Shown piece by piece: positions 796 through 26,744 of a stretch of 64,000 nt of DNA. This stretch comes from Desulfosudaceae bacterium (GTDB taxonomy: Bacteria; Desulfobacterota; Desulfobacteria; Desulfobacterales; Desulfosudaceae): contig CAXXDV010000001.1 in assembly GCA_963674745.2 (NCBI GenBank), forward strand, positions 2,400,001-2,464,000, read 5' to 3'. A program made the position numbers and the translations under genes. The notes beneath the pieces are model-generated. The model was given only the letters and a program-made list of their open reading frames with translations, made no database searches and was not told where the DNA came from. How positions within the stretch are numbered: the stretch's first letter is position 1; every line of letters starts with the position of its first letter.

Positions 796-1648
796 AGAGG
801 ACCGCCAACTTCCCCTGCTTGAACATCTGGAAGAGCTCCGCAAACGTCTGATCCGTTGCTTTATCGCCATTGGTGCGGGCTTCGGTATCGCGTACGGCTT
901 TAAGGAACAATTGTTTCAAATCCTGATTTATCCCCTTGTCCAGGTTATGGACACAAGCCGCGACAGCATGGTGTTCACCGGGTTGCCGGAAGCTTTTTTT
1001 ACTTATCTGAAAGTGTCTTTGCTGGCCGGCATTGTTGTCGCCCTGCCGGTGATATTCTATGAATTCTGGATGTTTGTCGCTCCGGGATTATACCGTAAAG
1101 AGCGGGTGGTGATTTTGCCGATTGTCATTATCTCCCTGTTTTTTTTTGCGGCCGGCGCGTTGTTTGCTTATTTTCTGGTATTCCCCTTTGGATTTAAATT
1201 CTTTCTGGGGTTTGCCTCGGAAACCATTCGTCCCCTGCCTTCAATGAAGGAATACCTCAGCTTTTCTTCCAAGATGCTGCTGGCCTTTGGTCTGGCCTTT
1301 GAGCTGCCGTTGGTACTTACCGGCATGGCCCGATTCGGACTGGTGGACGCCGCCTTTTTAAAGAAGAACCGGAAATATGCGCTGTTGCTTTTTTTTGTGG
1401 GCGCCGCGATCCTGACACCGCCGGATGTGGTCAGCCAGATCATGCTGGCCGTTCCCTTGATGGGCCTTTATGAACTGAGTATCGTGGGTGCCCGGGTATT
1501 CGGCCGCGATAAAATGTCGGCCGATGAAGCGGAAGAAAAACACAGCACAAAGAAACAGGAAAAAGAAAAGAAAAAGGCCGACAAACAACGGAAAAAAGAA
1601 GAGAAAAAACAGAAAAAGGCTCAAAAAAGGAATAAAAAGAGAGGCTGA
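788..1648 (+). CDS. tatC: Twin-arginine translocase subunit TatC with Lys-rich C-terminal tail
   Basis: [20 protein letters not shown] and LTPPD motifs; ATG at 788 overlaps the tatB end. Confidence 0.95.
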
Positions 1649-1774: not shown

Positions 1775-2257
1775 ATGAAAAAGGATATCAAACAAATATC
1801 AATGATGATTGGTTTTCCTGTATTACTGGCCCTGTTACTGGTCGGTCTGGCCGTGGCCGGGACTGAGTTTGCTGATGTGATTAAGATGCAAGACACGCAG
1901 GCCTATGATACCCATAAAAAGGGGATTGTCACATTTACCCATAAGAAACATCACGAGGAGTATAAAATTGCCTGTGGTGAGTGCCATCACGACAAAGACG
2001 CCAAACCCCTCGATCTTAAAATCGGGGACGATGTGCAACGCTGCCTGGAATGTCACCAGAAGGGCCAGGCCGACAAAGCCGCTCTCCGGGCCATGGCACC
2101 GGCTGACAAGAAAAAGGAAGAATTGAAGTATCACTACGGCGCCATTCACGAGAACTGCCAGGGCTGCCACGAAAAATTCAACACTGAAAAAGCGGGTGAC
2201 AAACGGAAAGGTCCGGCACCTGTTTCCTGTACCCAGTGCCATCCCAAGACCCAGTAG
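1775..2257 (+). CDS. Periplasmic tetraheme cytochrome c3 (class III)
   Basis: Signal peptide; VTFTHKKH; four CxxCH motifs (CGECH, CLECH, CQGCH, CTQCH); GAGGAG RBS. Confidence 0.92.
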   Translation: MKKDIKQISMMIGFPVLLALLLVGLAVAGTEFADVIKMQDTQAYDTHKKGIVTFTHKKHHEEYKIACGECHHDKDAKPLDLKIGDDVQRCLECHQKGQADKAALRAMAPADKKKEELKYHYGAIHENCQGCHEKFNTEKAGDKRKGPAPVSCTQCHPKTQ

Positions 2258-2622: not shown

Positions 2623-4029
2623 TTATTTTTTTGTCTGCCGGTAGGCCTGCGCGACGTTGACCATGGCCGGTGCCCAGGACGGGGTGCCCAGGGCGTGTAA
2701 GTGGGTGTATGCGGCCAGAACATTGCGGCTGCAAAGCCCGTCTCGTTTATTCTCAAACCCTTTACCCCGGACGGTCGAAAAGACCAGATCCGCGTCTTTC
2801 CCCCCCCAGGTCAGGATTTTAGAGTAGCGGAATTCATGGCCTTTTAATTCGGTCCCGATTTCAAAAAAAGGGTTGTCACTGTCAACCGTTGATATGGTAT
2901 ATCCGTGTCCGACCGGTTTCTCAGAGATGCCGAAGGAAACCGGGAAAATATCACACATGGGGTAGGCCGTATTGTCCATGATGATCTCTTTTCCAAGATA
3001 GATCAGGCCGCCGCATTCGGCATAAACAGGCAGGTATTGTTTCGCCAGTTGTGCGAGTTGCTGCCGGAAACCCTGATTGTCCGATAATTGACGGGCGTGG
3101 GTTTCCGGAAACCCGCCGCCGAGATAAAGGCCGTCAATATCATCCGGCAGTGTCGCGTCTTTTACAGGACTGACAAAAACCAGGTCCGCGCCGGCGGTTT
3201 CAAGGGCCTCCAGGTTATCAGGATAATAAAACTGGAAGGCCGAATCCCGGGCAACCGCAATCTTCGGACGGTTGCTGCCGGAATTAGCGGATATTGGCGG
3301 AAGAACAGTGTCCGGTGCGGTCCTTTCGGTTGCCCGGTTTGCTATATCCATTACGGCCTCAAGATCAATGTGCCGTTCGGCTATCTGCGCCGCGGCCGTA
3401 ATTGCCTCGTGGGCCCATCCATGTTCCGGGGTCGGTACCAGGCCCATATGACGTTCCGGAAAGTCACCGGCCGTCAGCTTGGGGATGGAACCAACGACCG
3501 GAATCCCGCAGTAATGCTCGATGGATTGACGCAGGATGGTCTCGTGGCGTTTGCCAGCGACACGATTTAATACGATCCCGCCAATGTTAATGCGTTGATC
3601 AAACGCCATGCAACCGCTGACAACCGCCGCGCAGGTGCGGGTGGTCTTGGTGCAGTCCAGACAAAGAATAACCGGCGCGCCCAGTGTGTGGGCGATATCG
3701 GCGGTGCTGGTTTTCCCCTCGATGTCGATACCGTCAAAAAGTCCACGGTTGCCTTCAATGACAGCAATATCGCAGATCCGCGTGTGATTAAAAAAAGAGG
3801 CGAGCAGAGGCTCGGTGGGGATGAAAAAGGTGTCGAGGTTGTAACAGGGAACGCCGGCCGCCAGAGAAAGCCAGCCGGCGTCAATATAGTCCGGCCCCTT
3901 TTTGAAAGGGGCGACTTGTTTTCTTTGATTCCGCAATGCCGCGGTTATACCAATGGCGACCGTACTCTTCCCTGCGCCGCCCCTTAAAGCTGAAACAATC
4001 AGCCGGGGGCAGGTGATATGCTCGTGCAT
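2623..4029 (-). CDS. dsrN: DsrN/CobB siroheme (cobyrinate) a,c-diamide synthase
   Basis: GKSTV P-loop, FKKGPDYID, ERHMGL, LGGGFPE, AECGG, GHEF; follows dsrABD. Confidence 0.9.
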   Translation of the reverse strand: MHEHITCPRLIVSALRGGAGKSTVAIGITAALRNQRKQVAPFKKGPDYIDAGWLSLAAGVPCYNLDTFFIPTEPLLASFFNHTRICDIAVIEGNRGLFDGIDIEGKTSTADIAHTLGAPVILCLDCTKTTRTCAAVVSGCMAFDQRINIGGIVLNRVAGKRHETILRQSIEHYCGIPVVGSIPKLTAGDFPERHMGLVPTPEHGWAHEAITAAAQIAERHIDLEAVMDIANRATERTAPDTVLPPISANSGSNRPKIAVARDSAFQFYYPDNLEALETAGADLVFVSPVKDATLPDDIDGLYLGGGFPETHARQLSDNQGFRQQLAQLAKQYLPVYAECGGLIYLGKEIIMDNTAYPMCDIFPVSFGISEKPVGHGYTISTVDSDNPFFEIGTELKGHEFRYSKILTWGGKDADLVFSTVRGKGFENKRDGLCSRNVLAAYTHLHALGTPSWAPAMVNVAQAYRQTKK

Positions 4030-4426: not shown

Positions 4427-5587
4427 TTATTTGATGGCGTTGGTGAACTTGAACTGGCTGGTTTGTCTCCAAGTATAGTACGCCGGATCACGGAAGTCAT
4501 CAATCAGGTGATGGCTAAATTCCAGATCACATTTCTCGAAGAATTTTTCCCAGCCGATTCTTTCGGCCCATTCACCAAGACGTTCGTATTTACGGGCGTC
4601 CTTGGCATAAACCTCGACAATGCGCTTGATACAGTCGGTCAGTTCCGGCCAACGGGGCACATTGTTGGGCAGAAAAGCCACGGCCACCTTGGAAAACATG
4701 GGCGGGCTGACCCGGTTGGATACCTTACCACCAACCATGACCACCACGCCGTCGCCTTCTTCATCTGCCAGCGGCATGGCCGGGCACATGGTGTAGCAGT
4801 TACCGCAGTACATGCAGCGATCAGCGTTGACCTCGACGCTCTTTACTTCCGTGCCGTCGACGTCGACCTTTTTGGGCTTGATGGCCGCGGTCGGGCAGGC
4901 GGCAACCGCCAGCGGAATTTCGCACATTTTATCCATGTACTCATGCTCCACGACCGGCGGTTTACGGTGATAACCCACAAAAGAGATATCCGAGCAGTGA
5001 ACCGCGCCGCACATGTTCAGGCAACAGGCCATGGAAACCCGGACATGGGCCGGCAGGGTCATGCTCTGGAAATACTCGAACAGTTCATCCATGCAGGCCT
5101 TGACCGGACCGGAAGCGTCGGTCGCCGGGGTATGACAGTGAATCCAGCCCTGGGTGTGAATAATATTGGTAATACCGGCACCGGTACCGCCGACCGGAAA
5201 TTTCAGGCTGCCGCCGTCAAATTTTCTTTCGGCCAGGTCTTTTACCAGTGCTTCCATTTTTTCTTTGCTGTCGGTCATAAATTCCACGTTGTTTCGCGTG
5301 GTCCAACGCACATAACCGTCGCAGTATTTATCCGCGATATCACAAATTTCACGGATGTGGGTAACGCTCATCAGGCGGCAACCGCCGGCTCTGACGGTGT
5401 AGACCTTGTCACCGGACTCGGCCACATGGACCAGGACGCCGGGTTCCAGGATTTGATGATACTCCCACTTGCCCTTGTTTTTCGCAATGACAGGTGGATA
5501 AAAGTCTGCAAAGTTTTTCGGGCCGATATCGGTAATTCGATTTTCCATCGGCTTGTCTGGGTTGTATCCAGAAGATATAAAAGCCAT
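4427..5587 (-). CDS. dsrB: Dissimilatory sulfite reductase beta subunit
   Basis: [10 protein letters not shown] start, [37 protein letters not shown]. Confidence 0.99.
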
Positions 5588-5599
5588 AATTCTTCCCCC

Positions 5600-6919
5600 T
5601 TATCGTTTGTGTCGCTCTCTGTAGAGTTTAATGTCTTTGTCAAAACCGCCCGGAACCTCGTCTTCTTTCCAGAAGATGTACGGGTTGGTCCTTGGTTCCT
5701 GAACATGCTGCGGCATGGCCGGGATGTTTGTCGCTTCCAGCAGCTTCTGGAAGCCCTGGCGTTTCATCAGTTCGCCCAGCCGTTCGCGGTTTTTGCCTTC
5801 TTCCATCCACCAGTCCCAGATCGCTTCGATGACTTCTTTGATCTCATCGTAGGGTTCTTCAACCTTGACAAAGGGGACAAGCAGGGAACCCATCTGGGCA
5901 CCGTCGAGAATCGGCGCCTTGGCACCGGCCAGAATGGACAGACCTTTTTCCTTGCCGGGTTTCAAGGCTCTGGGCATGACATTGATGCAGTGCATACAGC
6001 GGGTGCAGTTGCTGTTGTCGATTTCCAGTGTGCCGTTTTCATACTTCATGCATTCGGTGGGGCAGATATCGATGACTTCTTTCTGAATATCAAAAGGACC
6101 CCAGTCGCCGCCGGCATGAGAGCCGCCGTTGGCCGGAAATTCGGGATCGCCGTCGACATAAGCTTTGACTGCGGCCTGGTCGATCTGGATGTCGTCTCTC
6201 CAGGTACCGATAAAGGAAAGGTCGGCCCGGGCGATGGAGGCCACACAGCAGTTGGGGCATCCGTCAAATTTGAATTTGAATTTATAGGGGAAAGCCGGGC
6301 GGTGAAGCTCGTCCTGGTATTCCATGGTCAGGTGCGTGCACAGTGCCTGGGTGTCGTAACAGGCGTACTCACAGCGGGCCTGGCCGATACAGTCGGCCGG
6401 TGTCCTCAGGTTGGAGCCGGAGCCGCCCAGATCCTGTTCGAAGTTGTGGGTCAGTTCAAAAAAGATTTCTTCCAGCTGAGGCGTGGTGGTGCCCAGGAAG
6501 ATGATGTCGCCGGTGGAGCCGTGCATGTTGGTAACGCCGCTGCCGCGGAATTCCCACAGATCGCAAAGCTTTCGCAGGTAGTCAGCCGTGTAAAAATGTC
6601 CTGACGGCTGGTTGACCCGCATGGTGTGGAAATGGGCCACGCCCGGAAACATTTCCGGCTGATCACAGTACCGGCCGATAACGCCGCCGCCGTAACCGAA
6701 TACGCCCACGATGCCGCCGTGTTTCCAGTGAGTTTCCTTGTCCTTGTAGGAAAGTTCAAGAACGCCCAGCAGGTCATCGACCGCATCAACAGGGACCTGA
6801 AACTCGACATTGTTTTCGTTTTTCGCTCTTGACTCTGCCTCCTGCTTCAGGTCGGACACAAAGCTCGGCCATGGTCCGGACTCAAGCTCATCCAGCATAG
6901 GAGTCTGGTGTTTTGCCAT
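5600..6919 (-). CDS. dsrA: Dissimilatory sulfite reductase alpha subunit
   Basis: THWKHGGIVGVFGYGGGVIGRY, CIGQARC, FPYKFKFKFDGCPNCC, CTRCMHCIN. Confidence 0.99.
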   Translation of the reverse strand: MAKHQTPMLDELESGPWPSFVSDLKQEAESRAKNENNVEFQVPVDAVDDLLGVLELSYKDKETHWKHGGIVGVFGYGGGVIGRYCDQPEMFPGVAHFHTMRVNQPSGHFYTADYLRKLCDLWEFRGSGVTNMHGSTGDIIFLGTTTPQLEEIFFELTHNFEQDLGGSGSNLRTPADCIGQARCEYACYDTQALCTHLTMEYQDELHRPAFPYKFKFKFDGCPNCCVASIARADLSFIGTWRDDIQIDQAAVKAYVDGDPEFPANGGSHAGGDWGPFDIQKEVIDICPTECMKYENGTLEIDNSNCTRCMHCINVMPRALKPGKEKGLSILAGAKAPILDGAQMGSLLVPFVKVEEPYDEIKEVIEAIWDWWMEEGKNRERLGELMKRQGFQKLLEATNIPAMPQHVQEPRTNPYIFWKEDEVPGGFDKDIKLYRERHKR

Positions 6920-14274: not shown

Positions 14275-14547
14275 ATGCTGTGTACAACAGTCAAGGAAAA
14301 TACAGAATGCCCGTTTATGACGGCAAAAGGCTGTTCTTATAAAGAAGGTGTCTGTCTGCAGGCCGTGGAAGCTTGTGAGGGTTGCAAGCGTCTGGTTGAG
14401 TATCCATCCGGTATTTACTGCTCCGCCTGTCCGGATCCGGCCTTAAAATGGAAAAACGGAAATTGCAATCTGGCCACACACGTGGTTACAGAAGTTGAAG
14501 TCAAGGCCAAAATCAATCCGATTAAAGCCTCAAAACGTCGCGGATAG
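14275..14547 (+). CDS. PxxKW-family small cysteine-rich protein
   Basis: Cys-rich; PALKW..GNCNLATH..KINPIKASKR; AGGAGG RBS. Confidence 0.85.
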   Translation: MLCTTVKENTECPFMTAKGCSYKEGVCLQAVEACEGCKRLVEYPSGIYCSACPDPALKWKNGNCNLATHVVTEVEVKAKINPIKASKRRG

Positions 14548-14767: not shown

Positions 14768-15898
14768 TTGTTTTATGGTATATTTATAAATGTTCAACCA
14801 CCACCACTAATAGGACTGCTTTTGCCGCCTGCCAGCGAAAATAAAACCATACGGTTTGATCCACGGCCGCCCGGATCTTCGATACCGGGTATCTATATGC
14901 CCCGGGTACAGTTTGGCATTCGCATGCTTCTGGGCATATTGTCGGTAGTTTATTTCTTTGCCCTTCCGACGCCACCGTTTCTTTTAACCCGCCTCGGGGT
15001 GGGGGTGGTCATCGCCTGTTTTTTTATTTTTCATATTGCCTGGTGGTATTATTACCGAATCCGGGGTGCCGGTGACTGGAGTATCCGTCTGGCCGCCCTG
15101 GTCGATGTTCTGGCCGCCTTTACCGGTGTCCTGATCGATCCCTATGAAGTCCCGCCGACCGGGCTACTGGTGATGATAGCTGTGCTGGGAAACGGAATGC
15201 AGCATGGGTTGAAGATTTTTCTCGAGCAGTTTTTAATGATTCTGCTGTTCTGTGTACCGGTCTTTACTATTCGTCAGTTCCTGTTTTTTGGCCCGGCGTC
15301 ATATCAGCTGATTTTTGTTAACCTTTTTATCGCCATATGTATTTATTATGTTTTTCTGCTGCTGAAGCGAATTGAGCTGATGAAGAAAGAGGCGGAATTG
15401 ATGGCGCAGCAGGATCCGTTGACCAGGCTTTACAACCGGAACGCTTTTATTCAGGCGGTGCCCCACCTGCTTTCCCTTCATGAAAGAAAACAGATACCCC
15501 TGGTATTGATGTTCGCGGATCTGGATGACTTTAAACAGGTGAATGATCGGTTGGGGCATGCTTTTGGAGACAAGGTGTTGCGGTTTTTTGCCCGCCTGAC
15601 CGGAGAACTACTGAGAAAATCAGATCTTGTCGCCCGCTATGGAGGGGATGAATTCGTGTTTATGCTGGTCGATATGACGGTCAGTGAAGCCGAACAGGTG
15701 GCCCTTCGCCTGCAACGCGAATTTCTCCAATGGGCGGAAGAGCATGACGTGGGGGTGGGGGTCAGTTTTGGTGTTGCGGCTGTTCCTGAAAAAGATGTCG
15801 GCCTGGAGCGGATGCTCAGGCATGCTGATGAGGCGTTGTATCAGGCCAAAGCCCACAAGGGCGCCCGGAAAATCGTGATCGCGCCGCCTATGGACTGA
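14768..15898 (+). CDS. Membrane-bound diguanylate cyclase (start uncertain, possibly 14897)
   Basis: Several TM helices; DPLTRLYNR, DLDDFK, RxxD I-site (RKSD) and RYGGDEF. Confidence 0.88.
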   Translation: MFYGIFINVQPPPLIGLLLPPASENKTIRFDPRPPGSSIPGIYMPRVQFGIRMLLGILSVVYFFALPTPPFLLTRLGVGVVIACFFIFHIAWWYYYRIRGAGDWSIRLAALVDVLAAFTGVLIDPYEVPPTGLLVMIAVLGNGMQHGLKIFLEQFLMILLFCVPVFTIRQFLFFGPASYQLIFVNLFIAICIYYVFLLLKRIELMKKEAELMAQQDPLTRLYNRNAFIQAVPHLLSLHERKQIPLVLMFADLDDFKQVNDRLGHAFGDKVLRFFARLTGELLRKSDLVARYGGDEFVFMLVDMTVSEAEQVALRLQREFLQWAEEHDVGVGVSFGVAAVPEKDVGLERMLRHADEALYQAKAHKGARKIVIAPPMD

Positions 15899-16038
15899 AT
15901 TTCCCCTCTACCCGTCTGCTTTTTAAAAGTTCGTCATGTTTATTACAAAAAGACTTGAAAATCCGATCAGGAGTATGTTAGTTAATATTTTTTATTAATT
16001 TTGGCCTGATCCGGTTAATATAAATATGAGGTAGGTAG

Positions 16039-16623
16039 ATGATATCAAAAGAAAATGCGAAACTTGCAGTTGGCCTTGCGGGTGTTCTGTTGTTGGTTGG
16101 AATCGTCTGTTATGCGATCGGTGGACCGGAAATAAATTCTGATGATGGGCCGCTCAGGAAGGTCTTTATGGGGTTAGCCGGCGATGTCCTGTTCGATCAT
16201 CAGGCGCATATGGATTACGAGGGGGACTGTTTTGCCTGTCACCACCATGGCAGTGAGGATGAATTCCAGGCTTGTGATACCTGTCATTTGTCCGCGGTCC
16301 CGGCGACGGTCCCGGATGTTTGTAACGATTGCCATTCTTACGATGATGATGATTATATGGCGGATGTCCATTCCGAGCACCATGCCCTTCTAGAGAGCGA
16401 GCCTGACAATTATTCCTGCAAAACCTGTCATCAGGTCGCCGAAGGGGAGTCCATGCCCGCTGTCTGCGAAGACTGCCATGATCCGTCTGAAGTCGAAGAC
16501 CAGGTCAAAATCATGAACTACCAGAAGGCTGACGACGCCATGCATGGCCAGTGCATCGGCTGCCATGAAGATTATGGTGCCGGGCCGGTGGCATGCAATG
16601 AATGCCACGCCCAGAAAAAATGA
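16039..16623 (+). CDS. Acidic heptaheme cytochrome c, Rnf-associated (c3/DhcA-like)
   Basis: N-terminal hydrophobic anchor or signal; seven CxxCH motifs; first gene of the rnf operon. Confidence 0.88.
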   Translation: MISKENAKLAVGLAGVLLLVGIVCYAIGGPEINSDDGPLRKVFMGLAGDVLFDHQAHMDYEGDCFACHHHGSEDEFQACDTCHLSAVPATVPDVCNDCHSYDDDDYMADVHSEHHALLESEPDNYSCKTCHQVAEGESMPAVCEDCHDPSEVEDQVKIMNYQKADDAMHGQCIGCHEDYGAGPVACNECHAQKK

Positions 16624-16672
16624 TAACAGGCGGGTTTAAATAATTAACGCACACGAGGATAAAGGTAAGACG

Positions 16673-17950
16673 ATGATTAAACGATCGTTTTTCGGATTTG
16701 CAAAGCCCAACGTCCAGTATGAACGGGCGGATATTTTCCCGATGCGGCAGGAAATACCGGCCCCGGCGCAGGTGACGTTTTTGGCGGATGTACCTTATGA
16801 ACGGGCGGACCTGTTGACGATTCAGACCGGTGATGCGGTCGGCAGCGGACAGAAGATTCAACCGGTCAACGGCAACCCGGCCTATGTGACCGCTGCAGCC
16901 GGGGGAGTCATATCGTCGATTTCTTCCCACATCGGTAATTTCGGTAAAAAATATACCGCTATTACCATTGACGTGGATAAAGATGCGGTGGTTGATACGC
17001 AACTCCAGGAGGCCGGAAAAGAGCTCACCATGGGTACTATTGCGGACCTTCTGCGATGTGTTCCCGGCGGGCTGCCCGACGGGCTCTTTAATGGTTCGGA
17101 TGCTCTGGATACCATTGTCGTTCAGGGGGCGGATGAAGACCTGCTGGGCATTACCCAACCCTATATTGTCAAGCAGGAGATGTCCTCCCTAAAGCAGGGT
17201 GTTGCTCTTCTGCAGAAAGTTACCGGCGCCAAGCGGGTCGTGCTGACAGTGCCTTTTTCAATGGCTTCCGAAGGCGGTGCTTCCGGCGCTGAGGTCAAAA
17301 CCCTCAGCCCGAAATATCCGGCGGCCAATCCCCGGCTGATTGCCCGGGATTGTCTGGGTATTACCATACCGGCCGGATCAACATGCGAAGCCGCCGGCAT
17401 TTGTTTTATCTCAGCCGAAGCGGTGGCGGCATTGGGCAAGGCTTATGAAACCGGGACGATACCGAATCGTAAAATTATTACCGTGGTCAAAAGAAGCGGA
17501 GAGAAAATGCTTGTTTCCGCTGTTATTGGTACGCCTGCCGGAGATGTTCTGGCAGCCTGCTCCGAAACGCTTAACGCCAATGACCGGTTTGTTTTCGGCG
17601 GTCCCATGACCGGTTCGGCGGCGGTCTCGGAATCCGATCCGGTGGGCGTGGATACGGACATCATTATCGTACAGGATTCTGCCGCCCTTCCGGCAGTAGT
17701 TGACAGGAGCTGCATCAATTGTGGTGAGTGTGTCAGGATGTGTCCCGCCAATGTGCCGGTCAATATTCTGATCCGGTATCTGGCCGCCGGCGAATACAGT
17801 GACGCCGTTGACCAGTGCGATCTGCTTTCCTGCATTGAATGCGGCTTGTGCGCTTTTGTTTGTCCCGTAAATATCCCGATATTTCAGTATATAAAATTAG
17901 GAAAATATGAATTTGCCAGTCTTAACACAGCGGAGGCGGATGATGCATAG
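16673..17950 (+). CDS. rnfC: RnfC-like subunit (divergent; NADH/FMN motifs not recognisable)
   Basis: KYPAA, IGTP, GGPMTG, CINCGECVRMCP and CIECGLCAFVCP; operon position. Confidence 0.85.
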   Translation: MIKRSFFGFAKPNVQYERADIFPMRQEIPAPAQVTFLADVPYERADLLTIQTGDAVGSGQKIQPVNGNPAYVTAAAGGVISSISSHIGNFGKKYTAITIDVDKDAVVDTQLQEAGKELTMGTIADLLRCVPGGLPDGLFNGSDALDTIVVQGADEDLLGITQPYIVKQEMSSLKQGVALLQKVTGAKRVVLTVPFSMASEGGASGAEVKTLSPKYPAANPRLIARDCLGITIPAGSTCEAAGICFISAEAVAALGKAYETGTIPNRKIITVVKRSGEKMLVSAVIGTPAGDVLAACSETLNANDRFVFGGPMTGSAAVSESDPVGVDTDIIIVQDSAALPAVVDRSCINCGECVRMCPANVPVNILIRYLAAGEYSDAVDQCDLLSCIECGLCAFVCPVNIPIFQYIKLGKYEFASLNTAEADDA

Positions 17951-18902
17951 CGAGAAAAAACTTGTTGTTTCACATGCGCCGTTCTGGCATGACGGTGGGT
18001 CTATTTCCGCCAGGCATTATAATATCATGCTGGCGGCATTGATTCCTGTCATTGCCGGGTTTGTGACTTATGGTATTCCCGCGATCGGTGTTGTCGCCCT
18101 TTCGATTTCATGCGCCATTTTATGGGAACTCCTGATGAATAAAGTCATGCAACGGCCGGTTTCAATAGGTGACGGCAACGCGGCTTTAATTGGATTGTTA
18201 TTTGCCATGTTGCTGCCCGCCACCATGCCCTGGTGGGCGGTGGTTATCGGAACCTTTGTCGCGATTGTGATCGCCAAACAGATCTTCGGCGGTCTGGGCG
18301 CCAATCCCTTTAATCCGGCTGTGATCAGTATCGCCATTCTGATGGCAGCATGGCCCCAGTTTTTTAATTTTAATCACATGCTGGCCAATTACGACACCGG
18401 TTTTGCCATGGCTTATCCCCTTGGTCTGGCCAAGTATTTCGGTGCCTCATCGGTGACCGCCTTTACCCCGGGTGCGCTTCTTTTGGGCAAACAGTCCGGG
18501 GGGATCGGAACGACATTCGGCCTGGGGCTGATCATCGGCGGTGTTTACCTGATGCTTCGGGGGTATATCCGATGGGAAGTGGCTGTTTCGTTTTTAGTCG
18601 GTGTGTTTGTAACGGCCTTGTTGTTTAACAGGTTCGGCGGTGAGCAATACGCCGGTCCGGTTGTTCATCTGCTGGCCGGTTACACCCTGGTCGGTGCTTT
18701 TTTTCTGGCAACCGAGGATTCCACCTCTCCGGTAAACTTTGTGCCGATGATCATTTATGGCATCGCCGGTGGTGTGTTGACAGTGCTGATCAGAAACATC
18801 GGGAATTATGTTGACGGTGTCGTTTTTGCAATTTTGATTATCAACCTGGTCAATCCGCTGGTCGATAAAATTCGTCCAAAAGCATTGGGAAGGGCAGCAT
18901 AA
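17943..18902 (+). CDS. rnfD: RnfD membrane subunit
   Basis: SHAPF, KQIFGGLGANPFNPA, GAFFLATE..TSP motifs. Confidence 0.92.
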   Translation: MHSEKKLVVSHAPFWHDGGSISARHYNIMLAALIPVIAGFVTYGIPAIGVVALSISCAILWELLMNKVMQRPVSIGDGNAALIGLLFAMLLPATMPWWAVVIGTFVAIVIAKQIFGGLGANPFNPAVISIAILMAAWPQFFNFNHMLANYDTGFAMAYPLGLAKYFGASSVTAFTPGALLLGKQSGGIGTTFGLGLIIGGVYLMLRGYIRWEVAVSFLVGVFVTALLFNRFGGEQYAGPVVHLLAGYTLVGAFFLATEDSTSPVNFVPMIIYGIAGGVLTVLIRNIGNYVDGVVFAILIINLVNPLVDKIRPKALGRAA

Positions 18903-19489
18903 TGCGCGAATTAATAAAAATGGTGGTGGTGCTGACGGTTTTAACTGCGGTTTCCGGCGGACTTCTGGCCGGCGTGCGGTCAGCCACAAAAGACAAAATC
19001 GAATTTCAGGAACTGACCTTTGTCAAGGGGCCGGTTTTAAAGCAACTTTTTAAAAACGCGTCCAATGACATGATTGCCGACCGGTTTACCCTTGGAGAAG
19101 GCAAAGAGGCGGTCACCTTCTTCCCTGTCGCAGTCGACGGTAAAGTCAAATATGTGGCCCTAAGCGGCAGCGGTGCCGGTTTTGGCGGTGATATCGGACT
19201 GATGGTAGGGGTCGATGTAGAAACCGGAAACATTGCCGGTGTGGGTGTGACCACCCATAGTGAGACCCCGGGTATCGGGTCTCGGGCGAAAAGCGAGCCG
19301 GATCTGGCCAGTCGTTTTAAAGGGCTTCTGGTAGCAGAAACCTTCAAGGTCAAAAAAGACGGCGGTCAGATCGACGCCATTGGCGGTGCCACGGTTACCT
19401 CCCGTGGGGTTTGCGCGGCTGCCACCAATGCCGGTGAAATCTATGCCGGACTGGAATCTGAAATTAAAAGCAAGATACAGAGCTTATAA
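18902..19489 (+). CDS. rnfG: RnfG FMN-binding subunit
   Basis: N-terminal TM; GFGG, HSETPGIGS and DAIGGATVTS. Confidence 0.92.
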   Translation: MRELIKMVVVLTVLTAVSGGLLAGVRSATKDKIEFQELTFVKGPVLKQLFKNASNDMIADRFTLGEGKEAVTFFPVAVDGKVKYVALSGSGAGFGGDIGLMVGVDVETGNIAGVGVTTHSETPGIGSRAKSEPDLASRFKGLLVAETFKVKKDGGQIDAIGGATVTSRGVCAAATNAGEIYAGLESEIKSKIQSL

Positions 19490-19517
19490 AGCATTTTTTT
19501 AATAAGGGAGCTTGAAA

Positions 19518-20120
19518 ATGGCCAAGTCAATCACTCAGGAATTCACCAAGGGGTTGTGGGCGGAAATTCCCCCCTTCCGACTGGTGCTGGGGTTGTGTCC
19601 GGTTTTGGGCGTGACCACCGAAGTATGGAACGGCATCGGCATGGGACTGGCTACCACCTTTGTTCTGGTGGGGTCCAACATCCTGGTGTCTCTATTACGG
19701 AATATTATCCCATCCAAGGTCCGGATTGCCTGTTTTATCACGATTATCGCTACCTTTGTGACACTGGTGGAGCTGATCATGCAGGCCTATACCTATCCTT
19801 TGTATCAGCAGCTCGGCATGTTTATTCCCCTGATTGTTGTTAACTGTATTGTTCTGGGCCGGGCCGAGGCGTTTGCAAGCAAGAACTCAATCGTGCCGTC
19901 CATTGCCGATGGTCTGGGTATTGGTATCGGGTTTACCCTTTCTCTGGCTTCCATCGCACTCATACGGGAAGTCATCGGCGCCGGGACGATAAGTGTACTT
20001 GGTAATCATTACTCGCTGTTCGGAGATGCTTTTATGCCGTTTACGTTCATGGTTCAGGCGCCGGGCGCGTTTATCTGTCTTGGCCTCATGCTGTGTTTTA
20101 TGAATATGCTCGGCGAATAG
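19518..20120 (+). CDS. rnfE: RnfE membrane subunit
   Basis: LGLCPVL, FIPLIVVNCIVLGRAEAFA, PGAF. Confidence 0.93.
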   Translation: MAKSITQEFTKGLWAEIPPFRLVLGLCPVLGVTTEVWNGIGMGLATTFVLVGSNILVSLLRNIIPSKVRIACFITIIATFVTLVELIMQAYTYPLYQQLGMFIPLIVVNCIVLGRAEAFASKNSIVPSIADGLGIGIGFTLSLASIALIREVIGAGTISVLGNHYSLFGDAFMPFTFMVQAPGAFICLGLMLCFMNMLGE

Positions 20121-20130
20121 GAGAAGAACA

Positions 20131-20706
20131 ATGAGAGATATTATCCTGCTGGCAATAAGTTGTATCCTTATCAACAATATCCTGCTGGCACAGTTTCTGG
20201 GAAACTGCCCTTTTCTGGGTACGTCCAAGAAAATGGAAACCGCTACGGGTATGGCCATGGCGGTTATATTCGTTCTGGTCATGGCCGGTATGATCACCTG
20301 GTGTGTTGATGTTTATCTTCTGAAGAATTTTGAAATTGAATATTTACGAACGTTGTCGTTTATTCTGGTGATTGCCTCTTTGGTCCAGTTCGTTGAGATG
20401 TTTCTGAAAAAAAGCATTCCCGCACTGTATGCCGGATTGGGGATATTTCTCCCCCTGATTACCACCAACTGCGCTGTTATGGGTGCCTGTCTGATCAATA
20501 TCAAGGAGGAGTATACATTTATAGAAGCACTGGTGGCCTCCTTTTCTTATGCCGCCGGTTTCGGGCTGGCTTTGATTCTTTTTGCCGGTGTCAGGGAGCG
20601 GATCAATCTGAACCGGGTGCCGAAACCGCTTCAGGACACATCCATTGGTCTGGTTACAGCAGGTATGATCGCGCTGGCATTTTTTGCCTTTAAGGGAATG
20701 GTGTAA
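20131..20706 (+). CDS. rnfA: RnfA membrane subunit
   Basis: NN..L..FLGNCPFLG, LVQFVE, FLPLITTNCAVMG. Confidence 0.93.
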   Translation: MRDIILLAISCILINNILLAQFLGNCPFLGTSKKMETATGMAMAVIFVLVMAGMITWCVDVYLLKNFEIEYLRTLSFILVIASLVQFVEMFLKKSIPALYAGLGIFLPLITTNCAVMGACLINIKEEYTFIEALVASFSYAAGFGLALILFAGVRERINLNRVPKPLQDTSIGLVTAGMIALAFFAFKGMV

Positions 20707-20757
20707 GTTCCAGCCGGTTAAATTAACTTACGAAAAAACTACTATTATAAGGAGTAA

Positions 20758-22860
20758 ATGGTGACAGCAGCAGTTATCCTTTCAGCTGTTCTTCCAATGC
20801 TTGGCTTGGGATTGCTCAGCAGTGTGGTACTAGGCATTGCCGCAAGAGTATTTTATGTTTATGAAGATCCCATGATCGCCGAGGTGGAGGGCCTGCTTCC
20901 CGGCGCCAATTGCGGTGGGTGTGGATATGCCGGATGTTCTTCGGCTGCCGCCGCGATAGTTCGGGGCGAAGCCCAACCCGGTGTTTGTGTGGCTTCTGAC
21001 GCTGAAGCCGCAGTCGCTATTGCGAGCGTCATGGGCGTGGATCTGGGCAGTGCCGAAGCGGCAATATCCGCCAACTCATGTAATGGCGGTGACCGGGCCG
21101 AAGACAAATATGTTTACCAGGGGATTCAGTCATGTAAAGCTGCTTTTGCCCTGCATGGCGGCAGGCGTGTCTGTGAGATCGGCTGCCTGGGTTATGGTGA
21201 TTGCATCAAGGCCTGTGCGTTTGACGCCATTGACATGGGGCCGGATGGTTTTCCGGTGGTCAACGACCAAAAATGCGTGGGCTGCGGGGCCTGCGAAAAA
21301 GCCTGCCCCAGAAATATTATTTCCATCAAGACCATGTCCGAGCGGTTGCTGTCCATGAACACGGAAGACGGGGCGCACGCGCCCTGTGCCCAGACCTGCC
21401 CGGCGCAGATCGATATCCCCCGGTACATCGATCAGATTAAAAATGGTGATTATGAAGGGGCGGTGGCCACCATTCGTGAACGAAATCCGCTGTTGCTCGC
21501 CTGTGGCCGGGTTTGTCCCCATCCCTGTGAAGACCGCTGTCGACGGGGCATCGAGGATGAACCGGTTTCCATTAACCAGCTCAAGCGCTTTGTCGCCGAC
21601 TATGAGATGAATTCCGGCAAACGGTTTCCCATTCCCTGCGCGCCGAAAACAGGAAAGAAAGTGGCGGTTGTGGGTGGCGGACCGGCCGGTTTGAGCTGCG
21701 CGTTTTTTCTGCGGCGGGTGGGTCATGATGTGACCATTTTTGATGCCATGCCTGAACTGGGCGGTATGATCCGATACGGCATCCCGGAATACCGGCTGCC
21801 TAAAAAGACGCTGGCCTGGGAGACTCAGGGTATATTGAACCTGGGCATCGAGCACAGGCCGAACATGAAGCTGGGCCGGGATTTTGATCTCGGCAGCCTG
21901 GCGACTGCTTATGATGCGATTTTTCTGGGTATCGGTGCCTGGAAAGATTACAACCTCAAAATCGAAGGTAGTGATTTAAAAGGGGTATATACGGGTATCG
22001 ACTTTCTGACAAAATTTGCCGCTTATCAGCAGGGCAAAAGCAGTGAGCCGGTTCCTCTGGGAAAAAAATGCGCGGTGATCGGCGGCGGTAATACCGCCAT
22101 AGATTGCGTACGGACCCTGGTTCGGCTGGGGGCTGAAGAAGTTTCCATTGTCTATCGCCGAACAAGAAATGAAATGCCGGCCAACAAAGTGGAAATAGAC
22201 GCGGCCGAGGAAGAAGGAATCGCTTTAAAATATTTGTTTTCACCCAACCGGATTATCGGCGATGATGACGGGAATGTGACCGGGCTGGAAGTCCAGGAAA
22301 TGGAACTGGGCGAACCGGATGATAGTGGCCGTCGCCGGCCGGTTCCCAAAGAAGGCGCGGTGCAGGTCCTGGAAACCGACATGATTGTGCTGGCCATTGG
22401 CCAGGGCCCTGATATCGGATTCAAGGAAGCTGAAGCCGGAAGGCGAGGAGAAGATCTGCAAACCACGCGCTGGGATACCATTGATCAGGTCGATCCGGAT
22501 ACGCTGCAGACCAATATCCCTTATATCTTTACGGCCGGTGATGCCGCTACCGGTGCTTCTCTGGTCGTGGAGGGTATCGGCGGTGGGCGAAGGGCTGCCC
22601 GATCCATAGACCTTTTCCTCAAAGGCGAACCGGTTGAGCCGGTGAAAAAATCCCTGTTCGGTAAAACCATCGAAGGCAGCATTTTTGATGTGGTGGATGG
22701 GGTGACGCGTAAAAAACGGGTGGAGATGCCTGAACTTGAGGTCAGCGGGCGGATTAAAACCTTTGAAGAGGTTGACCAGGTCATTACCGAAGAAGATGCC
22801 CTTAAGGAAGCCGACCGGTGCCTCAACTGCTGCCGGATTTGCTACAATAAAGACGCGTAA
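20758..22860 (+). CDS. rnfB: RnfB fused to an NfnB/GltD-type Fe-S flavoprotein
   Basis: TM plus LPGANCGGCGYAGC and ferredoxin motifs; then CAQTCPA, CGRVCPHPCEDRC, GGGPAG, GGGNTAID, YRRTR. Confidence 0.9.
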   Translation: MVTAAVILSAVLPMLGLGLLSSVVLGIAARVFYVYEDPMIAEVEGLLPGANCGGCGYAGCSSAAAAIVRGEAQPGVCVASDAEAAVAIASVMGVDLGSAEAAISANSCNGGDRAEDKYVYQGIQSCKAAFALHGGRRVCEIGCLGYGDCIKACAFDAIDMGPDGFPVVNDQKCVGCGACEKACPRNIISIKTMSERLLSMNTEDGAHAPCAQTCPAQIDIPRYIDQIKNGDYEGAVATIRERNPLLLACGRVCPHPCEDRCRRGIEDEPVSINQLKRFVADYEMNSGKRFPIPCAPKTGKKVAVVGGGPAGLSCAFFLRRVGHDVTIFDAMPELGGMIRYGIPEYRLPKKTLAWETQGILNLGIEHRPNMKLGRDFDLGSLATAYDAIFLGIGAWKDYNLKIEGSDLKGVYTGIDFLTKFAAYQQGKSSEPVPLGKKCAVIGGGNTAIDCVRTLVRLGAEEVSIVYRRTRNEMPANKVEIDAAEEEGIALKYLFSPNRIIGDDDGNVTGLEVQEMELGEPDDSGRRRPVPKEGAVQVLETDMIVLAIGQGPDIGFKEAEAGRRGEDLQTTRWDTIDQVDPDTLQTNIPYIFTAGDAATGASLVVEGIGGGRRAARSIDLFLKGEPVEPVKKSLFGKTIEGSIFDVVDGVTRKKRVEMPELEVSGRIKTFEEVDQVITEEDALKEADRCLNCCRICYNKDA

Positions 22861-22891
22861 GTCTTTTTTTATTTATCGTTCGTCTGTATAA

Positions 22892-22920
22892 AGAGCTTCT
22901 GCCTGATGGGCGGGGGCTCT
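22892..22920. terminator. Hairpin between convergent rnfB and rluD
   Basis: AGAGCTTCTGCC..GGCGGGGGCTCT stem with G-U pairs. Confidence 0.45.
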
Positions 22921-23917
22921 TATTGTTTTATGCCCATTGTCGCATGGTTGATGTCCAGCAACAGCTGTTTCATATCTATCGGCAACGGGGCTCTGCATTT
23001 TATCTTTTGACCGGTCACAGGATGGATGAACTCCAGCTTCCAGGCATGAAGCATCTGCCGGCGCACACCTTTGAGCAGATTAAAAATCGTTTTGTTCTTA
23101 AATCGGACCGGTTGTTTTGTCCATCCGGCGTTGTTATAGGTATGATCTCCGACTACCGGTGTACCTGATTCTGCGCAATGTACTCTGATCTGGTGCGTCC
23201 GTCCGGTTTTAATGCCGACCTCCAACAGACTCGTTCCTTCAAATTGTTTCATTAATCGCCAGTGTGTCTCTGCCTGACGGGTTTTGGGGCTTTGGGTGGA
23301 CATTTTCTTCCGGTCGGTCATGTGTCTGCCGATGGGCAGGTGAATTGAGCCTCTTTCCCCTTCGGGTGCGCCAAAAACCAGGGCCAGATATACTTTGTTT
23401 ACTTTTCTTGAAGCAAACATCATGGTCAGTTGATCAAAAGCCGTTTGTGTCCGGGCGACAATGATCGCGCCTGAAGTGTCTTTGTCAAGCCGGTGCACGA
23501 TTCCCGGCCGGTCTCTGTCGACACCCGTGTTCAGAATGTCCGGGTATTTCGCCAGCAGGCCGTTGACAAGGGTTCCGGTGTCGTGCCCGGGCGCCGGGTG
23601 AACGACCAGGCCGGAGGTTTGTTGATAATAACCAGATGGTTATCTTCAAAAAGAAGGTTCAGGGGGATGGATTCCGGTAGCACCTGTCGGGCGGTTTCTT
23701 TCGGGATTGTGCCGGAGATGGTATCCCCGGCCTTTAATCGGTAAGCGGGTTTGGCCGTTCGTCCGTTAACAAGGATCCCCCCACGTTTAATCAAAGAAGC
23801 GGCCATGCTCCTGGAACAGGATTTGTTTTCGGAAAGGAACTGATCCAGTCGTATATCGATGTGATTGGTGTATGCAATCAGGGTAAAAGGGTTGGTATCA
23901 GAATTATTCGGCGGCAT
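22920..23917 (-). pseudogene. rluD: RluA/RluD-family pseudouridine synthase with a 1-nt frameshift at about 23611
   Basis: S4 domain and INKPP in one frame; LVVHPAPGH..RPGIVHRLDKDTSG and TGRTHQIRVH in another; adding one G restores the frame. Confidence 0.85.
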
Positions 23918-24662: not shown

Positions 24663-26744
24663 CTACAGAAACAGCACCGGAACCATCAGCAGCGCCACGA
24701 CGTTGACGATCTTGATCATGGGGTTGATGGCAGGGCCGGCGGTATCCTTGTACGGATCGCCGACGGTGTCGCCGGTAACAGCTGCTTTGTGAGCGTCGCT
24801 GCCTTTTCCGCCAAGGTTGCCGTCTTCAATGTATTTTTTGGCATTATCCCAGGCGGCGCCGCCCGTGGTCATGGAAATGGCCAAAAAGATACCGGTCACG
24901 ATGCTACCGATCAGCAGACCGCCGACAGCATAAGGCCCACCGGTCTTACCAAACAGAACACCGACAATAATCGGCGCGACAACGGGAATCAAGGCCGGAA
25001 CCATCATCTCTTTTAAGGCGAACTTGGTGACCAGGTCAACACAGGCAGAGTAATCGGGTTTGGCTGTACCTTCCATAATGCCGGGGATTTCACGGAACTG
25101 ACGACGAACTTCGTCAACAACCGCGCCACCGGCACGTCCTACGGCCTGCATGGCAATAGAAGCGAACAGGAAGGGCAACAGGCCGCCGATGAACAGACCG
25201 ATCAGAACACGGACATCAGCCAGATCAAAGACCATTTGAACGGCTTTGGTGCCGTGAGCACCTTCATGGAGGTTGAATTCCATGACATAGGAAGCAAACA
25301 GAACCAGAGCGGCCAGGCCGGCTGATCCAATGGCATATCCTTTGGTTACGGCTTTGGTGGTGTTGCCGACAGCATCCAGGGGATCGGTTACGGCACGAAC
25401 GCTTTCGTCCATTTCGGCCATCTCGGCAATACCACCGGCATTATCCGTGATGGGGCCGTAAGCGTCAATGGCGATGACCATACCGGTCATGGACAGCATG
25501 GACATGGCGGCCATGGCAATCCCGTAAAGTGAACCCAGGCTGTGGGCAATATAAATAGACACGCAGATGGCCAGAACAGGCAGCGCGGTGGCCTGCATGC
25601 TGACGGCCAGGCCGGCAATAATGTTGGTGCCGTGACCGGTAGTAGACGCTTCCGCAATATCTTTTACAGGTTTGTAGATGCCGGTATAGTATTCGGTGAT
25701 GATAACGATGACGACGGTCAGAATAATACCGATCAACGAACAGTAGTAAATGTTCATGGCATCGATGCCTTCAACAGGGCCGAGCATTTTTTTGGCGACA
25801 AAGTAGAAGGCTATGCCCGAAATAATGGCGGCACCGAACATACCTTTGTAAAGAGCGCCCATGATGTAGTCGCTGCCTTCCCGTAGTTTGACAAAGAAGA
25901 TGGCGATGATGGACGCGATGATGGAAACCGCGCCGAGTACCAACGGAAAATTGATAGCCACGGTCTGCACTTCGGGTCCGTTTGCCTTGAAAACCAGCGC
26001 GCCCAGGAGCATAGCCGCTACCGCGGTGACGCCGTAAGTTTCAAACAGGTCGGCCGCCATGCCGGCACAGTCGCCGACATTGTCACCGACGTTGTCGGCG
26101 ATAGTGGCCGGGTTGCGGGGATCGTCTTCGGGAATGCCCGCTTCCACTTTACCGACCAGGTCAGCACCGACATCGGCGCCTTTGGTGAAGATACCGCCGC
26201 CCAGACGGGCAAAGATGGAAATCAAGCTGCCGCCGAAACCCAGGGCGACCAGCGGTACGACCGCCTCAACACCTGACAGTCCTTTGTGCAGCAGAAACGT
26301 GTAGTATCCGGCGACCGCGGTCAAAGCCAGGCCGGCAACAATCATACCGGTCACGGAACCGCCCCTGAAAGCCATGGCCAGGCCTTTGGAAAGGCCTCCT
26401 CTGGCTGCTTCGGCGGTTCTGACATTGGCGATAACGGAAACGCGCATGCCGATGTAACCCGCGAAGAAAGAAGCGATGGCGCCTACTGCGAATCCCATGG
26501 CGGTCAGTTGACCCATGGTAAACCAGATAATGGCACAGATGATGATACCGGTGATACCCATGCTTTTGGCCTGACGGTTCAGATAGGCGATGGCGCCCTC
26601 TTTAACAGCGTCAGCGATTTGGTTCATCTTTTCGTTGCCGGAAGGCGCGCTTTTGACGACGCCAGCCATGATCAGAGCGAAAAGGATGCCGACCACGCCG
26701 ACCAGCGTGCACAGCAGTGGCAAATTGCCTGTTAATTGTTCCAT
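24663..26744 (-). CDS. hppA: Membrane-bound pyrophosphatase, K+-independent H+-pumping type
   Basis: [40 protein letters not shown] has the Lys of K+-independent enzymes. Confidence 0.95.

Follow-up and report, generated by a model that had tools for sequence, protein, structure and literature searches.

How can an Rnf complex work when the subunit that normally passes electrons to NAD+ lacks its nucleotide site? The question is raised by a seven-gene operon at positions 16039-22860 (forward strand) of a 64,000-nucleotide stretch of contig CAXXDV010000001.1 from a Desulfosudaceae bacterium (hereafter, the window), which encodes, in this order, a heptahaem cytochrome c, RnfC, RnfD, RnfG, RnfE, RnfA and an RnfB fused to an NfnL/GltD-type flavoprotein. 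The seven open reading frames (ORFs) run head to tail and are closely spaced, and each subunit was named by both Pfam and NCBIfam. Judged by profile scores, all six Rnf subunits, C, D, G, E, A and B, are encoded within the operon; the TIGRFAM cut-offs were exceeded by RnfD, RnfG, RnfE, RnfA and the RnfB part (87.2 against 68.7 for TIGR01944). A first-pass annotation of this DNA had read it as a rewired Rnf, with an RnfC devoid of the motifs for flavin mononucleotide (FMN) and NADH, an RnfD without its flavinylated Thr, an RnfG that keeps GGAT, RnfA and RnfE subunits that keep their Cys pairs, an RnfB carrying an NADPH-type flavoprotein and a 7-haem cytochrome at the head of the operon, and had allowed that similar clusters may already be catalogued. 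All of this is borne out below, and the change in RnfD extends to the whole FMN pocket.

The operon is the published "Rnf2" or "Desulfobacula toluolica Tol2-type Rnf" of sulfate reducers (PMC5109826, PMC11887813). The Tol2-type complex is described as having an RnfB of ~700 amino acids with NAD+-binding sites (PMC5109826), an RnfC without NADH-ubiquinone-oxidoreductase and SLBB domains, and a cytochrome whose gene lies in the rnf2 cluster (PMC5109826, PMC11887813). The window shows the same set of features, namely a 700-residue RnfB with Pyr_redox_2, Fer4_20, FeS and Fer4 domains, an RnfC that lacks these two domains, and a cytochrome gene next to rnfC. Rnf2 is reported to belong to the Desulfobacteraceae core genome and to be abundant and constitutively formed (PMC11887813), its proteins being constitutive in cultured Desulfobacteraceae (PMC5109826, PMC11887813); an action unlike that of classical Rnf, in the words of one description, "awaits experimental verification" (PMC5109826). 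The loss of the RnfD pocket, the retained RnfC clusters and fold, the pattern across a 61-row clade and the co-resident canonical Rnf and Nqr are added by the present analysis. Our literature search, which was not exhaustive, turned up nothing in print about either the RnfC site or the RnfD Thr of sulfate reducers, and fig. S18 of PMC11887813 may show RnfD.

The canonical electron path is described as running from RnfG FMN to RnfD FMN (<5 Å), riboflavin (7.7 Å), RnfC cluster 2 (11.7 Å), cluster 1, RnfC FMN and finally NAD+ (PMC9588780). The NuoF-like FMN/NADH site that canonical RnfC requires for the last steps is missing from the operon RnfC at the level of both motifs and domains. Alignment with three solved RnfC chains (8ahx_C, 9eri_C and 7zc6_C) shows that VPGGLPDG (17060-17083) replaces G-x-GGA-x-FP and QGADED (17123-17140) replaces NGAECEP; a domain scan returned no match to Complex1_51K (PF01512) or SLBB (PF10531) at E≤0.01, and the TIGR01945 score lies below its cut-off (Table 1). 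RnfD is altered as well. In Clostridium tetanomorphum RnfD, FMN is described as bound to Thr153 with its ring near Arg130 and Glu185, Asn90 and Glu185 as a proposed ion site, and riboflavin as flanked by Asn124 and the strictly conserved Asp248 (PMC9588780). These residues were mapped through an alignment with 7zc6_D, in which the Thr of ..TATPL was counted as 153, in agreement with PMC9588780. The window RnfD reads A169-Y170-P171-L172 (18411-18422), and Tyr170 (codon 18414-18416) aligns with the Thr of ..TATPL in both 9eri_D and 7zc6_D. At the FMN-site positions Asn90, Arg130, Thr153 and Glu185 it has Leu102, Ile142, Tyr170 and Thr202, respectively; at the riboflavin-site positions Asn124 and Asp248 it has Asn136 and Glu270. 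Since the window is identical over 15900-23611 to contigs of two public runs from one sample, the RnfD Tyr codon included, the odd Rnf residues are not assembly errors.

The RnfD protein was searched in 401 genomes of the phylum, 165 of which matched at E≤1e-20; apart from the source genome, 22 of 400 had a match at E≤1e-100, and 11 of the 13 listed genomes of the same order were among them. The survey set, a non-random sample of 90 RnfD rows, was built from 80 matched places (chosen chiefly for their rank, plus some second copies and weaker matches), 6 loci of a related-loci search and three loci of the source genome itself. A quickly built maximum-likelihood tree of RnfD united 61 rows in one clade (SH-aLRT, the Shimodaira-Hasegawa-like approximate likelihood ratio test, 99), where every RnfC seen is motif-less; the 29 rows outside comprise canonical forms, three odd loci and Nqr. 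RnfD is 52-65% identical to that of the window in 28 loci of the same architecture, and the rows with at least 52% identity, the window included, are referred to here as the 29 closest rows.

Thr occupies the flavinylation column in 29/29 rows outside the clade versus 0/29 of the closest rows, and the RnfD change is therefore not due to chance. Over the clade as a whole, Thr153 persists in 8 of the 61 rows (with Ser in 5 more), Arg130 in none and Glu185 in 4, compared with 29/29 for both Thr153 and Arg130 and 28/29 for Glu185 outside it. At the riboflavin site, Asn124 is retained in 56/61 clade rows (29/29 outside), and the position of Asp248 holds Asp or Glu in 61/61 (Asp in 29/29 outside); both the Asn and an acidic Glu or Asp are present in all 29 closest rows. 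Bulky, hydrophobic side chains (Tyr; Ile/Met/Tyr; Leu) now occupy what was the FMN pocket. Judged by these positions, the covalent-FMN pocket of RnfD is dismantled as a whole rather than changed at a single residue; the flavinylated Thr that canonical RnfD requires is absent, and the Thr-bound FMN is predicted to be lost. We also considered a covalent 8-alpha-O-tyrosyl flavin on Tyr170, and rejected it because the column is not conserved among the 29 closest rows (Y 21, N 3, F 2, A 2, E 1).

The remainder of RnfC has been kept. Two CxxCxxCxxxCP motifs, C347-C357 and C387-C397, predict two [4Fe-4S] clusters, and their eight cysteines are invariant in 28/28 Rnf2-type, 36/36 other motif-less and 24/24 canonical RnfC sequences. 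The 64 motif-less RnfC/NqrA-like sequences that share these cysteines have 20-60% identity, and no further Cys column is conserved in their alignment, which was inspected for Cys only. An AlphaFold2 model of RnfC, built from a 37-row alignment, reached a predicted local distance difference test score (pLDDT) of 91.1 and a predicted template modelling score (pTM) of 0.91. When this model was compared with solved structures by Foldseek, the template modelling (TM) score was 0.81 to 8ahx_C and 9eri_C and 0.79 to 7zc6_C. The idea that this RnfC has turned into an NqrA was rejected, as the model is closer to those RnfC chains than to NqrA (TM 0.65-0.69). The conserved cysteines and the full-length match to the RnfC fold indicate that fold and clusters are under selection and that only the nucleotide/FMN site is gone. 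Among 8000 candidates scored, at least 960 proteins are related to this RnfC at E≤1e-5, most of them named "4Fe-4S dicluster domain-containing protein" by NCBI. The identity is 57% to a Desulfosudis oleivorans protein and 45-83% to many Desulfobacterales proteins from metagenome-assembled genomes.

The features of canonical RnfG, RnfA and RnfE are all present: the flavinylation Thr of RnfG and the Cys pairs of RnfA and RnfE (Table 1). RnfG carries ..GGAT with T164 at 19391-19393, and G162, A163 and T164 are invariant in 26/26 aligned RnfG sequences. The 700-residue RnfB fusion (20758-22860, forward strand) begins with a membrane helix, an N-terminal Fe-S domain (C52, C55, C60, C77) and a dicluster domain of the ferredoxin type (C139-C183). 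Its flavoprotein module contains a motif for flavin adenine dinucleotide (FAD) at residues 306-311, GGGNTA at 442-447, YRR at 466-468 and a C-terminal Cys motif, C688/C691/C695; all Fe-S cysteines, including these three, are invariant in 34 fused RnfB sequences. The best solved relatives of residues 207-694 are the NfnL-like NfnA domain of NfnABC (9bov_A, E 1e-131; 9n5u_A, 1.8e-120) and then StnC (8oh5_C, 8e-117), followed by the weaker NfnSL large subunits (4ylf_B, 5jca_L, ~1e-99) and GltD (1e-65). In NfnABC, NADPH is described as binding beside the FAD of the NfnL-like domain and reducing it, the bifurcating site lying elsewhere, and single electrons as leaving through the two clusters of that domain (PMC11829005). 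The similarity supports the view that the RnfB module is a simple entry or exit for NADPH electrons, connected to the RnfB clusters.

The cytochrome encoded 49 bases upstream of rnfC has a hydrophobic N-terminal anchor and consists of a tetrahaem core common to its relatives plus an insert with three extra CxxCH motifs. Alignment of 24 cytochromes encoded beside such operons showed no variation at Y25, P38, R40 or the haem motifs of the core. The operon cytochromes of relatives have the anchor, an invariant Tyr-Pro-Arg segment close to it and the tetrahaem core in common, and inserts bring them to 3-8 haems; most surveyed relatives have four or five, compared with the seven of the window.

These traits follow the tree. 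RnfC motifs are lost in 64 survey rows. In the 24 rows with canonical RnfC motifs, RnfD has Thr in 24/24, RnfB is short in 22, uncalled in 2 and fused in none, and an upstream cytochrome gene is found in 0 (none in 23, cut in 1). A cytochrome gene lies directly upstream of rnfC in 43/90 rows, with RnfC motif-less in 43/43, and fused RnfB occurs in 34 rows, 33 with motif-less RnfC and 1 with rnfC cut at the contig end. Within the 61-row clade, an inner clade of 41 rows (SH-aLRT 99) has the cytochrome in 39 rows, none found in 1, and 1 cut. One group of the 61-row clade has a decahaem cytochrome, rnfCDGEAB with a 300-residue RnfB, and apbE, with Asp at the Thr column; tetrahaem groups have either a short RnfB (Pro at the column) or a fused RnfB (Ser); and fused RnfB without a cytochrome occurs with Pro in 6 rows and Thr in 8. 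The co-occurrence that the first-pass annotation had asked to be checked thus holds as a clade-wide pattern in the 90-row survey. The changes reconstructed on the RnfD tree (Thr absent 2, RnfC motifs 3, RnfB fusion 4, cytochrome 3) are too few to give co-evolution statistics any power (independent-pairs p = 1). The co-occurrence of the RnfD, RnfC, RnfB and cytochrome traits is a clade signature and not a tested correlation. Outside the 61-row clade, three loci (L096, L097, L098) have an RnfC without FMN/NADH motifs beside an RnfD that keeps Thr, Arg130 and Glu185, and their gene order differs, with rnfG-E-A upstream of rnfC in L097; by these residues they represent an independent loss of the RnfC site.

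The same genome (5.55 Mb in 3 contigs, with one apbE gene) holds a second, canonical rnfCDGEAB, with an RnfC scoring 507 bits, a Complex1_51K (PF01512) match of 176 bits and both motifs, and an RnfD with ..QATPM. A complete nqrABCDEF is also present, so the operon copy need not do the jobs of these two complexes. The genome's NqrA (L014:9159-10499, reverse strand, contig C1 at ~1.386 Mb) has two full CxxCxxCxxxCP motifs and an RnfC Fe-S region match at E 1.4e-23, and the NqrB of the same operon keeps its Thr; NqrA is listed as cofactor-free (PMC4014512). By its motifs, this NqrA may be an intermediate state between RnfC and NqrA.

With confidence that we regard as evenly poised, we propose that Rnf2 is a reversible, ion-coupled NADPH (perhaps also ferredoxin):cytochrome c oxidoreductase. 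NADPH would reduce the FAD and the two [4Fe-4S] clusters of the NfnL-like module on RnfB; electrons would move on to the RnfB clusters, to an intramembrane Fe-S centre held by the RnfA/RnfE Cys pairs and to the covalent FMN of periplasmic RnfG, which would pass them to the haems of the heptahaem cytochrome and so to a periplasmic cytochrome pool serving sulfate-reduction complexes. Ion coupling and reversibility would reside in the conserved Rnf core. The route is suggested because the operon combines an NADPH-type module, intact RnfA/RnfE cysteines, the RnfG Thr and an anchored cytochrome with the losses at the RnfD and RnfC sites; we infer from it the NADPH substrate, the partnership of RnfG with the cytochrome, ion pumping and direction. 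The invariant RnfG Thr and the one apbE gene in the genome are consistent with such a route, and the upstream cytochrome occurs solely beside motif-less RnfC (43/43, against 0/24 canonical). In Methanosarcina acetivorans, the Rnf complex functions without NAD, and RnfG FMN has been proposed to reduce an operon-encoded cytochrome c (PMC4023990). The first-pass annotation had described a transmembrane wire to the cytochrome pool, with the return path through RnfD and RnfC lost. The wire is plausible and close to the earlier proposals for Methanosarcina Rnf (PMC4023990). The loss of the return path is supported in part only: it agrees with the site and pocket losses and is opposed by the retained RnfC cysteines, fold and riboflavin site and by Thr-less fused loci that have no cytochrome; RnfD with riboflavin and RnfC with two clusters are probably still redox-active.

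Several points weigh against the NADPH:cytochrome c proposal. The kept RnfC clusters and fold and the riboflavin-site residues of RnfD would argue for electron flow through RnfD and RnfC. Six fused-RnfB, Thr-less loci have no same-strand cytochrome gene within 7 kb, which indicates that the design can do without the cytochrome as an output. The fused rnfB is in its place in 17 of the 29 closest loci; 6 others reach a contig end, and in the remaining 6 the sequence runs on for at least 4.2 kb past rnfA without an rnfB. These last Rnf2-type loci (L024, L033, L038, L039, L040, L041) show that the RnfB fusion is not always within the operon. In L040 and L041, a separate GltD-like gene lies ~1.3 kb past the operon end, and L024 has a short, divergent rnfB-like gene divergently upstream of the cytochrome. 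The choice of NADPH rather than NADH comes from homology and the YRR motif only, and the energetics would depend on the haem potentials. In Desulfovibrio alaskensis, the decahaem cytochrome DhcA of the rnf operon was dispensable for fitness in nearly all conditions that required Rnf (PMC4215793).

It is unlikely, in our estimate, that Rnf2 remains a ferredoxin:NAD(P)+ oxidoreductase with its sites swapped, NAD(P)+ being reduced at the RnfB flavoprotein, ferredoxin or another low-potential carrier being oxidised at exposed RnfC clusters, and the cytochrome forming a side branch. Current metabolic models assume a function of this kind, as in PMC11887813, where Rnf2 is placed between the ferredoxin and NAD(P) pools, and the invariant Fe-S cysteines of RnfC, the kept riboflavin-site residues and the fused-RnfB loci without a cytochrome would fit it. 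However, electrons would have to cross RnfD without the FMN that is described as bridging RnfG FMN and riboflavin in C. tetanomorphum (PMC9588780). Exergonic transfer from ferredoxin to NADP+ would also run from RnfC to RnfB, which by the published mechanism is the direction of ion uptake in canonical Rnf, so that no energy would be conserved, and the genome already encodes a canonical Rnf.

A full semicircular path without covalent RnfD FMN is, we think, quite unlikely. RnfG FMN or a non-covalent flavin would use the RnfD site, NADPH electrons would travel by way of RnfB, RnfA/E, RnfG, the RnfD riboflavin and the RnfC clusters to a higher-potential cytoplasmic acceptor (e.g. a sulfite-reduction protein), and the cytochrome would offer an additional way out or in. 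Conservation of the RnfC clusters and fold and of the riboflavin site again fits, as do the loci that have neither the Thr nor a cytochrome, the location of dsrAB 10 kb from the operon, and the Thr-less two-subunit Nqr/Rnf-like complexes in which, according to modelling, the FMN of the RnfG-like subunit comes up to the membrane subunit's flavin site (PMC11334425). Yet the bulky hydrophobic residues look like a filled rather than an open pocket, the operon contains no candidate acceptor gene, and the sequence gives no hint of a new RnfC site, no further Cys column being conserved.

Less probable still, in our view, is an extension to the whole DVU2794-type clade (Rnf2, dhcA-rnf and the cytochrome-free fused forms), whose members would be non-NAD-linked, cytochrome-coupled three-terminal machines; in Rnf2, NADPH would enter at the NfnL-like FAD on RnfB, and its electrons would be split between the periplasmic cytochrome, reached through RnfA/E and RnfG, and a cytoplasmic route over riboflavin and the RnfC clusters, in a membrane-bound, ion-coupled bifurcation or confurcation. 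If true, this would provide periplasmic electrons for the Qrc, Tmc and Dsr complexes of Desulfobacteraceae without hydrogen cycling. We give equally little credence to RnfD and RnfC as purely structural relics that leave the wire as the whole story, as is thought of NqrA in the Na+-translocating NADH:quinone oxidoreductase (Na+-NQR; PMC4014512), for although RnfC has lost its nucleotide site and RnfD its FMN pocket, a relic would be expected to lose its cluster cysteines, as Vibrio NqrA did (PMC4014512); all eight are invariant in the 64 motif-less RnfC/NqrA-like sequences, and RnfD keeps the Asn124 and Asp248 positions.

The tatC, c3-type cytochrome, DsrN-like and dsrAB genes 10-15 kb upstream of the operon make up, together with the membrane pyrophosphatase downstream (Table 1), a loose energy-metabolism cluster. 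Its gene content marks the organism as a sulfate/sulfite reducer that has dsrAB, cytochromes of the c3 type and three Rnf/Nqr-type complexes. A Cys-rich 90-residue DUF6811 protein is encoded 1.5 kb upstream of the operon (14275-14547, forward strand), with a GGDEF gene (14768-15898) between them. On the other side, an RluD-like pseudouridine synthase gene (22920-23917, reverse strand) is split in two, with the S4 domain in one ORF (23531-23917) and the catalytic part in another (22920-23498); in both public runs the contigs that cover this stretch have an extra G behind 23612, so the split is probably a one-base assembly error and not a pseudogene.

Table 1 Features of the rnf2 operon and its surroundings, with positions counted in the window
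Feature	Position	Strand	Evidence and reading
Leader	15899-16038	+	AT-rich, 140 bases, ribosome-binding site before cytochrome gene; presumed promoter region
Membrane-anchored heptahaem cytochrome c, 194 residues	16039-16623	+	Seven CxxCH; Pfam Cytochrom_CIII 48.7 bits
RnfC variant, 425 residues	16673-17950	+	TIGR01945 139.6 bits, cut-off 245.95
RnfD variant, 331 residues	17907-18902	+	PF03116 293.6 bits
RnfG, DVU2794 type, 195 residues	18902-19489	+	NF045876 RnfG_DVU2794 250.4 bits (cut-off 205), FMN_bind; predicted periplasmic FMN carrier
RnfE membrane subunit, 202 residues	19512-20120	+	TIGR01948 247.5 bits; Cys29, Cys112
RnfA membrane subunit, 191 residues	20131-20706	+	TIGR01943 244.5 bits; Cys26, Cys114
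RnfB part, residues 1-203	20758-21366	+	PF04060 and Fer4 matches; RnfB NCBIfam models over residues 2-205
Putative NfnL/GltD-type NADPH:FAD:2x[4Fe-4S] module, residues 204-700	21367-22860	+	Pyr_redox_2 109.3, Fer4_20 96.8, PRK12771 506.1 bits
Terminator-like hairpin	22891-22921	+	14 pairs, T-rich tail, 31 bases past rnfB stop; consensus match only
tatC	755-1648		Upstream in window
c3-type cytochrome	1775-2257		Upstream in window
CobB/DsrN-like amidase	2623-4029	-	Upstream in window
dsrB	4427-5587	-	Upstream in window
dsrA	5600-6919	-	Upstream in window
Membrane pyrophosphatase	24663-26744	-	Downstream of operon

A promoter presumably lies within the leader, where a sigma-70 search found nothing convincing (6 matches against 7.0 expected), and the hairpin past rnfB is the likely end of the operon. 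The one RNA run considered (X7) held only short fragments, mostly 85-95% alike, with one 146-base piece identical; since most of them diverge to this degree, they were ascribed to relatives, and they give no evidence of operon expression in the source organism. Four further runs (X3-X6) contained small shares of matching sequence, from which no habitat was deduced.

Rnf2 bears on the question of how, in complete-oxidising sulfate reducers, the electrons of cytoplasmic NAD(P)H and ferredoxin reach the sulfate-reduction complexes of membrane and periplasm. The residue-level picture obtained here, with the RnfC site and the RnfD pocket gone, the clusters and the riboflavin site kept and an NADPH-type input predicted on RnfB, yields sharp predictions for purified Rnf2. 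It also calls into question the label "ferredoxin:NAD+ oxidoreductase" that is routinely given to Rnf2 as well as to Desulfovibrio-type loci, which give a hint of having the same losses.

The closest known counterpart is the Rnf2/Tol2-type complex itself, which is described with the large RnfB, the reduced RnfC, the cytochrome gene and a second, Acetobacterium woodii-type Rnf in the genome; the window cytochrome differs in having seven haems, and the published Rnf2 descriptions consulted make no mention of RnfD. The Desulfovibrio operon dhcA-rnfCDGEAB-apbE (PMC4215793, PMC4841214) has the RnfG subtype NF045876 in common with the window, and surveyed loci of that layout have a motif-less RnfC and an RnfD without Thr and fall in the same 61-row clade, whereas their RnfB has ~300 residues and no flavoprotein module, the cytochrome is decahaem and apbE belongs to the operon. 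Five such loci (L045, L046, L049, L050 and L054), which are tied to Desulfovibrio by architecture and model only, consist of a decahaem cytochrome gene, rnfCDGEAB with a 300-residue RnfB, and apbE. In 5/5, RnfC is motif-less, Asp occupies the RnfD Thr column, and Arg130 and Glu185 are absent. L050 (3282-10113, reverse strand), the sole one of the five that was scanned, gave 282.9 bits for RnfG on the DVU2794 model and 155.5 against the cut-off of 245.95 for RnfC. The D. alaskensis-type complex is treated in the literature as a ferredoxin:NADH oxidoreductase.

The M. acetivorans Rnf/MmcA system resembles the window in that a cytochrome c gene heads rnfCDGEAB, NAD is not used and RnfG FMN is the proposed cytochrome donor (PMC4023990; PMC12174285). 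It differs in its acceptor, methanophenazine, and no NADPH module on RnfB is mentioned for it (PMC4023990; PMC12174285); the archaeal RnfC, D, G, E, A and B equivalogs scored far below cut-off on the window subunits (rnfC_Methano 87 against 650, rnfG_Methano 72.5 against 230). The canonical Rnf complexes of A. woodii, C. tetanomorphum and Azotobacter vinelandii (9eri, 7zc6, 8ahx) have six homologous subunits, the same gene order and RnfC fold, the RnfG Thr and the RnfA/RnfE cysteines, whereas the operon lacks the RnfC FMN/NADH motifs and the RnfD FMN pocket and has gained a flavoprotein and a cytochrome. NfnA of NfnABC (9bov/9n5u) and StnC (8oh5) share with the RnfB module the motifs for FAD, NADPH and two clusters, and their Cys motif at the C-terminus is related to its own; their NfnL-like domain feeds a soluble bifurcating enzyme, and in the operon the domain is joined to an RnfB anchored in the membrane. 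The two-subunit Nqr/Rnf-like complexes also have an RnfD-like subunit without Thr and a proposed one-way electron export from NAD(P)H, but there the NAD-binding domain is fused to the RnfD-like protein, and RnfA, E, C, B and a cytochrome are lacking (PMC11334425). Na+-NQR, finally, has a homologous membrane core, an NAD(P)H flavoprotein on the RnfB/NqrF side and an RnfC homologue without a nucleotide site (PMC4014512), whereas NqrF is unrelated to the NfnL-like module, NqrB keeps its flavinylated Thr and the acceptor is quinone. No NqrF-like gene is present in the operon, and Nqr models scored far below cut-off on the window subunits. By this comparison, the NfnL-fused Rnf2 and Na+-NQR appear as a case of parallel rewiring.

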